Part shown: piece by piece, positions 35,509 through 39,779 of the stretch
Layout of the letters: each line of letters starts with the position of its first letter
Numbering within the stretch: the first letter of the stretch is position 1
Assembly (NCBI GenBank): GCA_021158245.1
Contig: JAGGVB010000195.1
Location: forward strand, 265-64,264
Direction: 5' to 3'
Length of the DNA: 64,000 bases
Source of the DNA: a bacterium
GTDB taxonomy: Bacteria; Zhuqueibacterota; QNDG01
Position numbers and translations under genes: made by a program
Notes under the pieces: model-generated
Seen by the model: only the letters and a program-made list of their open reading frames with translations
What the model was told of the DNA's origin: nothing
The model's database searches: none

Positions 35509-37092
35509 ATGGAACAGAGAATATTTAAAAAATATCAAAAAGAGCCTGTTGTTAAAATAAAGGTTGCTCAATTTGGAGATTCAATTGATTTCGATGTAAC
35601 AGGCAAATTTTCCGCAATTGATGATTTCGGGAATGTAATTCTCGACAGTGTTGATTCATCCGCAGGATGGAGGCTAAAGAAGTTTTCATACGAGCCTGCT
35701 ACGTTTGTATTTTCAATTCTTGTATATAAAAGCAAAAATAAAAAGCAGGTTGAGAAAGTATCGGAAGAGCTGCGTATTAAAAATATAGAAACCCAGATCG
35801 ATATCAGGGGCGGTTTGATTACTTTGAATGATAAAGTCATTACTGACAATACACATTATTTTCTTGTAACAGGTACATTTAATTCTTTAAAGGAAGCAAA
35901 GGATTTTCAGAGAGCATATCTCTATAATTTCAACACAGATATCGTAATGGAGAAGATACGCGAGGCGCGGTCTGTAATGGAAATTTTTGATATTGAATAT
36001 CATCATTCGGCAAAATTTATAAATTCCATAAGAATTATTCAGGCAAATAAGAGTGGTGAAATTGTTTTAAAGGGTGTAAAGGTCGGAGAAGGCCATAAAT
36101 GGTCTTTCAGGATGGATAAGATATGTCACGATCCGGTAGTGTTCAGAAACGATAATAACGGTAAATTAATAGCAGTTTCTGAAATAGGCCTGGAAAAGTA
36201 TCTTCGCGGGGTTGTCCCTATGGAGATGCGGCAGGACGCACCTGAAGAAGCATTGAAAAGTCAGGCTGTAGCTTCGAGAGGATATGCAATATCTATGATA
36301 GGTATTGCCCATAACAGGGACTATTTTGATCTCTGCAGTGAACCGCACTGTCAAATTTTCGGAGGAGCCGGACAATGGGATAAAAGAGCTGACAAGGCCA
36401 TAAAAGAAACAGCAGGAGAAGTACTGTATTCAGGATCAAAATTATGTGATTCTTTTTTTACACCGGTTTGCGGCGGTTTTACAAATGACGGAACTTTTAA
36501 AGAGCTTTTTATTCACAATACAAAACTTAAGGGAGAACTTGATACTGTAAATGCACAAAGTAAAGTGTCAGGCCTTGAGCATGAAAGAGATATTTTAGAT
36601 TGGGTAAGTACAGAACCGGATGTTTTTTGTAAAAATGGCAATCAGCAGGGAGAAAAAGTAAGGGTGAATCACGAAGGTAATACCTTCCGCTGGTCAGTTT
36701 CGCTTGACAGGCGTGATATAGAAAAGTCAGTCAGGCGTTTTACGGGGCTTGATACAGGGACTATTTATGATATAATTCCAGTGAAGAGGAACAAATCAGG
36801 ACATGTGTATGTGATTGAGATTATAGGCAGCAGGAAAAATATTATTATGAGCGGTTATAACAAAATATGCAGAATTTTTTCCCGTTCAGGACTGGAAAGC
36901 ACATGCTTTTATGTGGAGAGGGTTCAAGTCTCCAATGGTATTCCGGGTTCTTTTGTTTTTACAGGTGCAGGCGAAGGAGAGGGGATAGGTATGTGCCAGT
37001 CTGGCGCAGTTGAAATGGCCTTACAAGGGCATAATTATAGAGAGATTTTAAAACACTATTTTGGTACGGATACTATAAAAAAATTATATTAA
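35509..37092 (+). CDS. SpoIID/LytB-domain protein with N-terminal SPOR-like region
   Basis: LEKYLRGVVPMEM, EALKSQAVASRGYA, FDLCSEPHCQIFGG, GAGEGEGIGMCQSGA..MA..G.NYREILKHYF. Confidence 0.88.
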   Translation: MEQRIFKKYQKEPVVKIKVAQFGDSIDFDVTGKFSAIDDFGNVILDSVDSSAGWRLKKFSYEPATFVFSILVYKSKNKKQVEKVSEELRIKNIETQIDIRGGLITLNDKVITDNTHYFLVTGTFNSLKEAKDFQRAYLYNFNTDIVMEKIREARSVMEIFDIEYHHSAKFINSIRIIQANKSGEIVLKGVKVGEGHKWSFRMDKICHDPVVFRNDNNGKLIAVSEIGLEKYLRGVVPMEMRQDAPEEALKSQAVASRGYAISMIGIAHNRDYFDLCSEPHCQIFGGAGQWDKRADKAIKETAGEVLYSGSKLCDSFFTPVCGGFTNDGTFKELFIHNTKLKGELDTVNAQSKVSGLEHERDILDWVSTEPDVFCKNGNQQGEKVRVNHEGNTFRWSVSLDRRDIEKSVRRFTGLDTGTIYDIIPVKRNKSGHVYVIEIIGSRKNIIMSGYNKICRIFSRSGLESTCFYVERVQVSNGIPGSFVFTGAGEGEGIGMCQSGAVEMALQGHNYREILKHYFGTDTIKKLY

Positions 37093-37150
37093 CCGTGAAT
37101 TTGAATAACTGGAATAGTGCTTCATTTTGTTTATTTGTTGAGGAGTTTTA

Positions 37151-38246
37151 ATGTACGATGATTTATTAAATAAGATGAAACCTGTTAAGGAGCGGCTTGA
37201 TCAACTTCGGGGGCATCTTTAACTTAGATGATAAAATAAAGAGAATTAATGAATTAGAGCAAGAGAGCTCTGTTGCTGATTTCTGGAACAAGCAGGAAAA
37301 TGCGCAGAATGTATTAAAAGAGTTAAATGAACTGAAAGAGTGGGCTGACAGCTGGAATAAACTGAATGATAAATATGATGAGATGATGCTTTTGCTGGAA
37401 CTTGCAAAAGATGAAAAAGATGATGATACATTCAGCGAAGTTGCACAGGAGATTGACCAGATTGAGGATAATATAGAGCGGCTTGAACTAAGCCAGATGC
37501 TGAGCGGGCCCAATGACTCAAATAATGCAATTATCACAATTCATCCCGGAGCAGGCGGTACAGAATCTCAGGATTGGGCGGAAATGCTTTTCCGCATGTA
37601 CATACGTTTTTGTGAAAGAAGCGGTTATAATGTATCAATAATGGATTTGCAGACTGGAGATGAAGCTGGCATTAAAAGCGCTACTCTTGAAGTTGCAGGA
37701 AAGAACAGTTTCGGATATCTAAAAGCAGAAGCCGGAGTTCACAGGCTTGTGAGGATTTCCCCATTTGATGCCAATAAAAGACGGCATACTTCATTTGCAT
37801 CTGTTTTTGTTTATCCGGAAGTTGCCAATGAAATTGAGATTGACATTAAACCTGCTGATTTAAGAATTGATACTTACAGAGCATCCGGAGCAGGCGGACA
37901 GCATGTTAATAAAACAAGTTCTGCCGTACGGATTACACATCTGCCGACAAATATCGTGGTGCAGTGCCAGAATGAGCGTTCCCAGTTTCAGAATAAAGCA
38001 AATGCAATGAAGATTTTAAAAGCCAGGCTTTATCAGCAGCGGCTGGAAGAAGAGAATAAAAAACTTAAGGAAATTGAGAAAAACAAAAAGGATATTGCCT
38101 GGGGCAGCCAGATACGGTCTTATGTTTTTCATCCTTATACAATGGTTAAAGACCACAGAACAGGAGTGGAAACTTCAAATATTCAGCAGGTAATGGACGG
38201 AGACCTTGAGGCATTTGTCAGAGAATATCTGCTTCAGTTCAGTTAA
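37151..38246 (+). CDS. prfB: Peptide chain release factor 2, with +1 programmed frameshift
   Basis: AGGAG RBS, ATG 37151, 23 codons to CTT TAA C (37217-37223) with internal SD CGGGGG 3 nt upstream; SPF and GGQ motifs in the +1 frame. Confidence 0.95.
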
Positions 38247-38270: not shown

Positions 38271-39779
38271 TTGAATCCTCTCAGTTTGCTCAGAAATCAG
38301 AGACTGCAGAAATTAGAAAATCTTCGGGAACAGGGAGTTCTGCCCTATGAATATTCCTATAACCGTACACATACAGCAGAAGAAATTGTTTCTAAATATA
38401 CTGAAGGAATGGATGCATCTGCTGCAGGAAGGATAATGTCATTAAGAAGAATGGGCAAGGCGAGTTTTGCCCATATTATGGATGCATCTGGAAGAGTGCA
38501 GATCTATGTAAAGCAGGATAATGTAGGTGAAGACGGATATAAAATTTTTAAAAATCTTGACCTCGGAGATATTATAGGGGTTAAAGGCCAGGTTTTTAAA
38601 ACCCGTACAGGAGAGATAACACTTCTTGTAAAAGAGCTTAAACTTCTCGCAAAAACATTGAGGCCCCTGCCAATTGTAAAAGAGCAGATAAAAGGTGATG
38701 AAAAAGTAGTATACGATGCTTTTGCAGATAAAGAATTGAGATACAGACAGCGCTATGTTGACCTTATTGTCAATTCCGATGTGGTAAAAGTTTTTAAAGC
38801 ACGTTCAAGAATTGTATCAGAGATGAGGCATTATCTTGAAGAGAGAGGTTATCTTGAAGTTGAAACACCTGTTCTTCAGCCTATATACGGCGGCGCAAAT
38901 GCAAGGCCTTTTGTGACTCATCATAATACACTTGATATGACATTTTATCTGAGAATTGCAGATGAGCTCTATCTCAAGCGTCTGATAGTAGGCGGGTTTG
39001 AGGGCGTTTTCGAGATTTCCAAAGATTTTAGAAACGAAGGCATGGACAGAGATCATAATCCCGAATTTACCATGATGGAACTCTATGTTGCTTATGAAGA
39101 TTATGAATTCATGATGGATCTTGTAGAAGATATGGTGTCTAAAATAAGCACGAAAGTTTTCGGAAGAGATGTTGTAGAAGTGGAGGGCACAAAGATAAAT
39201 CTTAAACCGCCATGGAAACGGATGACTTATTTTGGAGCAATAAAAGAGTATACCGGTTATGACCTTTTTGGAAAAGATATTGAAGAAATTTATAATATAG
39301 CAGAAAAATTAAAAGTTGAAGTTGAAAAAGGTGCTGATAAAGGGAAAATTTATGATGAAATATTCTCTGTGTTTGTAGAACCGAAACTTATTGAACCGAC
39401 AATAATTAAAGATTTTCCTTTGGAAATTTCACCTCTTGCAAAAAAACACAGATCTCTCGAAGGCCTGACCGAAAGGTTTGAAGCATTTGTTCTTGGTAAA
39501 GAACTGTGTAACTCGTTCAGTGAGCTTAATGACCCCATTGACCAGAGAGAAAGGTTTGAAGCTCAAAGCAAACTTAAGGCCGAAGGAGACGAAGAAGCAA
39601 TGGTAATTGATGACGACTATATACGTGCACTTGAGTACGGTATGCCTCCGACAGCAGGACTGGGTATTGGTATTGACAGGCTGGTTATGCTCCTTTCCGG
39701 AGAGCCTTCTATCCGTGATGTGATTCTGTTCCCTCAGATGAGGCCTGAGAATGTTAAATCTACAGAAGGGCAGGAGTAA
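38271..39779 (+). CDS. lysS: Lysyl-tRNA synthetase (class II)
   Basis: [51 protein letters not shown]; TTG start. Confidence 0.97.

Follow-up and report, generated by a model that had tools for sequence, protein, structure and literature searches.

A prfB frameshift site with UAA in place of UGA in an uncultured bacterial lineage, and the UGA, UAA and in-frame forms of the gene in its close relatives

The release factor 2 (RF2) gene prfB of an uncultured bacterium was analysed in a stretch of DNA of 64,000 nt (the window, meaning the whole stretch at its full length) together with the corresponding loci of related genomes and metagenomes. At the frameshift site of this prfB, UAA stands in place of UGA; the substitution was confirmed and is real. 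A UAA prfB site as such is a known, documented minority variant, and what is new here is local only: among four related lineages, one has UGA, two have UAA and one is without the frameshift. The site is likely a functional programmed +1 frameshift site for RF2, in which one G-to-A substitution would have turned the UGA stop into UAA.

The prfB cassette, its product and its genome context

Direct reading of positions 37208–37223 gave C GGGGG CAT CTT TAA C, with C at 37208, GGGGG at 37209–37213, CAT at 37214–37216 and the CUU-U slippery run (CTT T, 37217–37220) directly 5′ of the stop. The in-frame stop is TAA (37220–37222) and not the RF2-specific UGA of the canonical form; the +1 frame from 37221 begins NLDDK and is open up to 38246. 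The anatomy described in the initial annotation (Shine–Dalgarno-like element (SD), 3-nt spacer, CUU, UAA, C and a +1 frame starting N-L-D-D-K) proved exact, by sequence and by translation. A full frameshift motif with a TAA premature stop, CTTTAAC, is present in the window and in two further sequences, L114 and L115, which are described below. The spacing GGGGG/GGAGG-NNN-CTT is identical in the prfB sites of relatives, and the window site lies in register with their CTT TGA C and so is no chance motif. Coordinates of all features, and the cassettes of the four lineages, are collected in the table.

Table. Features of the prfB region (window positions unless a contig is named) and frameshift cassettes of the four related lineages
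Feature	Position	Strand	Basis or remark
SpoIID/LytB-domain protein gene, upstream neighbour	35509..37092	+	synteny marker common to all four lineages
Ribosome-binding site GAGGAG, 5 nt 5′ of the prfB ORF0 ATG (37151)	37140..37145	+	read from sequence
prfB ORF0, 23 codons plus TAA stop: MYDDLLNKMKPVKERLDQLRGHL, then stop	37151..37222	+	translation; protein conserved in L115, L116 and L117
Internal Shine–Dalgarno-like GGGGG, spacer CAT (3 nt) to the CUU shift codon	37209..37213	+	sequence
Slippery-stop heptamer CTT TAA C: P-site shift codon CUU 37217-37219, in-frame stop UAA 37220-37222, weak +4 context C 37223	37217..37223	+	
prfB +1 frame, from AAC (Asn) 37221 to stop 38244-38246	37221..38246	+	RF2 residues 24-364
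SPF tripeptide of RF2	37758-37766	+	translation
GGQ of RF2	37893-37901	+	translation
lysS (lysine--tRNA ligase), downstream neighbour	38271..39779	+	NF001756, 697 bits; usual prfB-lysS arrangement
Cassette of L117-L121 (five contigs, five samples)			CTA AGG GGG CAT CTT TGA C ATT GAT GCC AGA; UGA, frameshift
Cassette of the window			CTT CGG GGG CAT CTT TAA C TTA GAT GAT AAA; UAA, frameshift
Cassette of L115			CTC AGG GGG CAT CTT TAA C TTA GAT GAT AAG; UAA, frameshift
Cassette of G001 (same genus) and L116			CTT AAA GAA CAT CTT AAT CTG GAT GAT AAA; one frame, no frameshift
In-frame prfB of G001 (L031, L032)	G001:C367:2984-3550 and G001:C165		
In-frame prfB of L116	L116:912-2006		

The joined product of ORF0 and the +1 frame is 364 aa long, a full-length RF2. 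In a profile search it matched the NCBIfam prfB model TIGR00020 with 546 bits (cut-off 370) in a single stretch, residues 10–360 to profile positions 2–352, spanning the junction, and RF1 (prfA) models scored far lower on it, under their cut-offs. The protein has the efficient form YRASGAGGQ, which we take to be the Ala-246 type, and its nearest named homologues are RF2 proteins of Calditrichota.

The genome assembly comprises 3.21 Mb in 233 contigs with 38.4% GC and contains one prfB and one prfA (G000:C55:2962-3957; NF001859, 505 bits, cut-off 400). The stops of 1,529 long ORFs are TAA (54%), TGA (27%) and TAG (19%); with TGA at more than a quarter of these ends, RF2 is needed. Of the tetranucleotide stop contexts, TAAC and TGAC are the least frequent genome-wide, C following only 10% of TAA stops. 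The comparison with genome stop-codon usage proposed at the outset was thereby run, and all three stops are in normal use. RF1 and RF2 both recognise UAA, a point of the initial annotation that is established knowledge, and the genome encodes the two factors. Absence of RF1, which would leave UAA specific for RF2, was ruled out by the presence of prfA and the share of TAG. Stop reassignment was likewise ruled out, since each of the three stops terminates long ORFs and neither a suppressor tRNA nor a tRNA-Trp with anticodon UCA was found in the genome with ARAGORN, the only tRNA-Trp anticodon being CCA. Given a prfA gene, TAG in use and no reassigned stop, both release factors are needed and the UAA of this cassette is not RF2-specific.

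The slipping tRNA in E. coli is tRNA-Leu(GAG). One tRNA-Leu(GAG) was detected in the genome with ARAGORN; its anticodon can pair with CUU and, after a slip, with UUU. In total, 41 tRNAs were detected in the assembly (G000). The 3′ end of 16S rRNA, sought for its anti-SD, was not found by motif search of the 233 contigs, and this metagenome-assembled genome (MAG) probably lacks the rRNA operon.

Occurrence of UAA-type sites and the four-lineage series

UAA-type sites had been catalogued before. Prince, Lin & Feaga (mBio 2025; PMC12421855; preprint 10.1101/2024.09.24.614795) surveyed 12,751 genomes and found the prfB frameshift motif in 8,164 of them; the stop of these frameshifting genes is TGA in 98.6% and TAA (CTTTAA) in 1.4%, and TAG does not occur. 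They include TAA sites in the motif and report them from multiple phyla, kept among strains and not broadly fixed in clades (PMC12421855). In their view TAA is poorly tolerated, yet still responsive to RF2, which is the main reader of UAA in most bacteria (PMC12421855). Baranov et al. 2002, as cited by Prince et al. (PMC12421855), had a single exception to UGA among 87 sequences. The novelty implied by the initial annotation is therefore not upheld: beside the catalogued 1.4% and the single exception of 2002, at least 39 more species were found here. The window extends the 1.4% class by one lineage, which belongs to an uncultured phylum that has been sampled poorly.

For the search, CTNMGGRGGYATCTTTAAC was scanned against one genome per GTDB species and 80 matches were listed; among these 80 loci, at least 39 further species have genuine prfB TAA sites. 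The taxa with genuine TAA sites among the matches listed include Acetobacter and Gluconobacter (with Gluconobacter oxydans and Acetobacter pasteurianus), Bartonella spp., Magnetococcales and Moraxellaceae, as well as Aquabacterium, Thiospirillum, Legionella, Agrobacterium vitis and Williamhamiltonella. Fixation of TAA across the whole genera Acetobacter and Gluconobacter, to which their many matches pointed, was considered and is ruled out by an Acetobacteraceae sample in which the 30 closest prfB loci comprise 27 with TGA, 2 with TAA and 1 in-frame; the distribution is sporadic, as in the literature. Within these two genera, CTT TAA C TGG GAT is found in many species and CTT TGA C TGG GAT in close congeners, in an otherwise identical cassette (L128, L131, L134, L141, L142, L149, L155, L169, L174, L182, L183, L185, L195 and L198-L200 compared with L244-L271). 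Such a mixture points to repeated G/A flips at one position within two genera. One Acetobacteraceae genome of 2.0 Mb (L264; G158:C1:685614-686672) carries an in-frame prfB, CTT AGG CGC CAT TTG GAC TGG, in which the Asp codon GAC is kept and the SD is partly eroded. The frameshift appears to have been lost here recently and from a UGA state, for which retention of GAC would be expected.

Closer to the window, about 110 prfB loci were tabulated, composed of 30 loci in genomes of the same order or phylum and about 80 metagenomic loci with an identity of 60% or less to the window RF2, among the matches listed. Every other site found in this set is CTT TGA, mostly followed by C, so that the window is the sole TAA among the matches listed; about 27 of the loci have no site by the criteria of the script, some of these having CTT TGA and merely no SD-like match. 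In one genome of the same order (L012; G017:C2:101383-102414, minus strand), prfB has the canonical CTT TGA C; 270 codons past the shift site, an additional in-frame stop, TAA, takes the place of the conserved Tyr of ...ARLYQQ... (SRL*QKK), for which a nonsense mutation, a MAG error or some other cause is conceivable.

Exact-protein look-ups brought out four related lineages with identical SpoIID-prfB-lysS synteny. The first is that of the window itself, to which the Logan assembly of SRR14000038 (L114) is 100% identical across 4046 nt. The second is represented by L115, a JGI contig of a different sample, with the same synteny and AGGGGG CAT CTT TAA C TTA GAT GAT AAG. Window and L115 share 83.7% nucleotide identity in prfB (about 16% divergence) and 89% amino acid identity in RF2, and TAA has been retained in L115 across this distance. 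Between their ORF0 sequences, 8 codon changes are synonymous and 1 is non-synonymous; frame 0 is therefore translated and subject to purifying selection. The check on prfB across the lineage that had been proposed was thus carried out; TAA is present in the window and L115 (and in the identical L114), and the other lineages have TGA or an in-frame gene.

In the lineage of G001 and L116, prfB is in-frame. Apart from the window's own species, G001 is the sole member of this genus that the genome collection contains; its prfB is split across two contigs with an exact overlap of 72 nt. Relative to the window, the CTTT run of G001 and L116 is shorter by one T and the SD is gone (AGGGGG/CGGGGG to AAAGAA), and the Asn codon is AAT where the TAA lineages read AAC. 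The junction peptide N-L-D-D-K is common to the in-frame lineage and the TAA pair; the TGA lineage and the outgroups have D-I-D/E. In a maximum-likelihood tree built on RF2 and LysS (and SpoIID), the four lineages form one clade (100/100) nested among TGA-bearing members of the order. Within it the window pairs with L115 (100/100), the in-frame lineage groups with this TAA pair at 90/62–72, and the TGA lineage is basal. The two alternative branching orders of the three sub-lineages gave AU p = 0.18 and 0.21, and neither was rejected. Genomes without the frameshift have a higher TGA usage according to Prince et al. (PMC12421855); in the in-frame sister no raised usage was seen (TGA at 25% of stops among 116 long ORFs, against 27% in the window's genome; p = 0.26), and a change in RF2 demand is not visible in this measure.

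Predicted function of the UAA site and alternative explanations

By the G-to-A change that replaced UGA with UAA, the first +1 codon would also have turned from GAC (Asp) into AAC (Asn). At the UAA, translation would be terminated by RF2 and, here, also by RF1. Instead of termination, pairing of GGGGG with the anti-SD 3 nt upstream would help tRNA-Leu(GAG) to slip from CUU to UUU, and full-length RF2 would be made. The release factors would compete with this slip; negative feedback by RF2 would be kept, with a sensor that is no longer specific for RF2. Frameshifting, RF2 feedback, cross-talk with RF1 and an efficiency lower than that of UGA-C are what we infer. Feedback by RF2 should persist if RF2 is the main reader of UAA, as Prince et al. 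hold for most bacteria (PMC12421855), and the efficient YRASGAGGQ form of the protein is a further reason to expect it. The efficiency of frameshifting at UAA-C is probably below that at UGA-C, by analogy with E. coli, in which altering any element of the site, stop identity included, lowers frameshifting according to the work cited by Prince et al. (PMC12421855); as far as that citation goes, the mutagenesis agrees with the initial suggestion that the efficiency at UAA probably differs. Repression of RF2 synthesis by RF1 through the UAA site is plausible. The response of RF2 synthesis to the total release-factor pool, put forward in the initial annotation, may hold, and the argument of Prince et al. 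on the main UAA reader counsels against giving it much weight (PMC12421855).

The main live alternative is that UAA is functionally neutral, that is, that RF2 performs nearly all termination at UAA, that the influence of RF1 is not meaningful and that the change is a tolerated transition in a genome of 38% GC. This would fit with the argument of Prince et al. on the main UAA reader, with the RASGAGGQ form of the window RF2, and with the persistence of TAA over 16% nucleotide divergence and in many species of Acetobacteraceae. Against it, TAA makes up only the small, never broadly fixed minority of sites catalogued in PMC12421855, which suggests a cost; TAG at 19% of stops implies that RF1 must be reasonably abundant; and a changed stop identity lowers frameshifting in E. 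coli, in the work as cited there. Neutrality is considered rather unlikely, and a functional frameshift site with a sensor no longer specific for RF2 is the preferred reading.

Protein databases list the window RF2 as a 349-aa protein starting from TTG 37197 (MINFGGIF...; P0001, P0002). Positions 37187–37199 of the window comprise AAGGAG (37187–37192), 4 nt (CGGC) and this TTG in the +1 frame. With such a signal ahead of the TTG, gene callers give the 349-aa form, and both the N-terminus encoded by ORF0 and the recoding event are missed; in practice, gene-caller annotation omits the ORF0 N-terminus of this RF2. The same AAGGAG and the database entry of exactly 349 aa (P0001) could be taken to mean that RF2 starts at the TTG, that there is no frameshifting and that ORF0 is a separate leader peptide. 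This is highly improbable: AAGGAG constitutes Lys-Glu codons of ORF0 and is unconserved (AAAGAG in L115, AAAAAA in L117), ORF0 matches the RF2 N-terminus and continues into the RF2 body without a frame change in G001 and L116, and the whole SD-N3-CTT-stop-C cassette is kept.

A sequencing or assembly error, with TGA as the true codon, would be conceivable in a MAG of 233 contigs and is effectively excluded by the identical Logan assembly, by the same TAA in the diverged contig L115 from a different sample and by the Asn codon AAT at the matching position of the in-frame sister lineage. Decay of prfB to a pseudogene, to which the non-canonical stop and the remodelled region in the sister lineage might point, is scarcely credible for an intact +1 ORF that has all motifs, is better conserved in protein than in nucleotide sequence relative to L115, and is the sole prfB of a genome in which 27% of long ORFs end in TGA.

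Evolutionary reading and comparison with known systems

The functional reading can be extended to an order of events among the four lineages, for which the chances appear close to even: UGA-C would be ancestral, the G-to-A change would have occurred before the split between the UAA pair and the in-frame lineage, and the latter would then have lost one T and the SD, with autoregulation abolished. The basis is four lineages and one moderately supported node. A T deletion from CTT-TAA-C would give CTT-AAT in frame, and the SD would have eroded afterwards. Sharing of N-L-D-D-K with the TAA pair is a pointer, independent of the tree, to a UAA origin of the in-frame lineage; the Asn of that lineage could also have arisen independently.

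A more tentative proposal, to which we give somewhat less than an even chance, is that UAA constitutes a weakened and short-lived RF2 sensor, repressible by RF1 and lowered in frameshifting, and that in this genus autoregulation was lost directly from this state. Lim et al. (Mol Biol Evol 2026; PMC13245932) found that weakened prfB frameshifting was compensated by 1-nt deletions, either of a T ahead of the stop or of a G within the SD, and that these deletions abolished autoregulation; the series of the four lineages agrees with their model. If the proposal is true, the four lineages would be a natural snapshot of this route of a compromised frameshift followed by a compensatory 1-nt deletion, and it would account for TAA sites staying rare and scattered. 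In Acetobacter and Gluconobacter, TAA occurs among TGA congeners with no sign of loss, which indicates that TAA is not necessarily a step to loss. The UGA, UAA and in-frame cassettes provide a natural set for two questions: does UAA make RF2 autoregulation weaker or cross-wired, and does a weakened UAA sensor drive repeated frameshift loss across bacteria?

Compared with the canonical E. coli prfB (AGG GGG UAU CUU UGA C; Craigen & Caskey, Baranov et al. 2002), the window gene has the same ORF0 of about 23–25 codons, an internal SD 3 nt 5′ of CUU, the CUU-U run, a stop followed by C, a +1 frame that encodes the rest of RF2, and lysS downstream. It differs in its stop, UAA (RF1 and RF2) as opposed to the RF2-specific UGA, and in its first +1 codon, AAC (Asn) as opposed to GAC (Asp). 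With the CTTTAA class of Prince et al. (PMC12421855) it shares an identical TAA-C cassette and a sporadic distribution limited to small species groups; it differs from that class in belonging to another phylum, as an uncultured lineage of the FCB group, and in a clade in which TGA, TAA and in-frame states all occur within four close lineages. In the in-frame genes of G001 and L116, one T fewer joins the frames of ORF0 and the RF2 body, an event of the kind found in the Pseudomonas fluorescens SBW25 suppressors of Lim et al. (PMC13245932). In contrast to those suppressors, the event in G001 and L116 is natural and inferred, not observed, the SD is wholly eroded (AAAGAA), and the background appears to have been UAA where that of the suppressors was an engineered CUA mutation.
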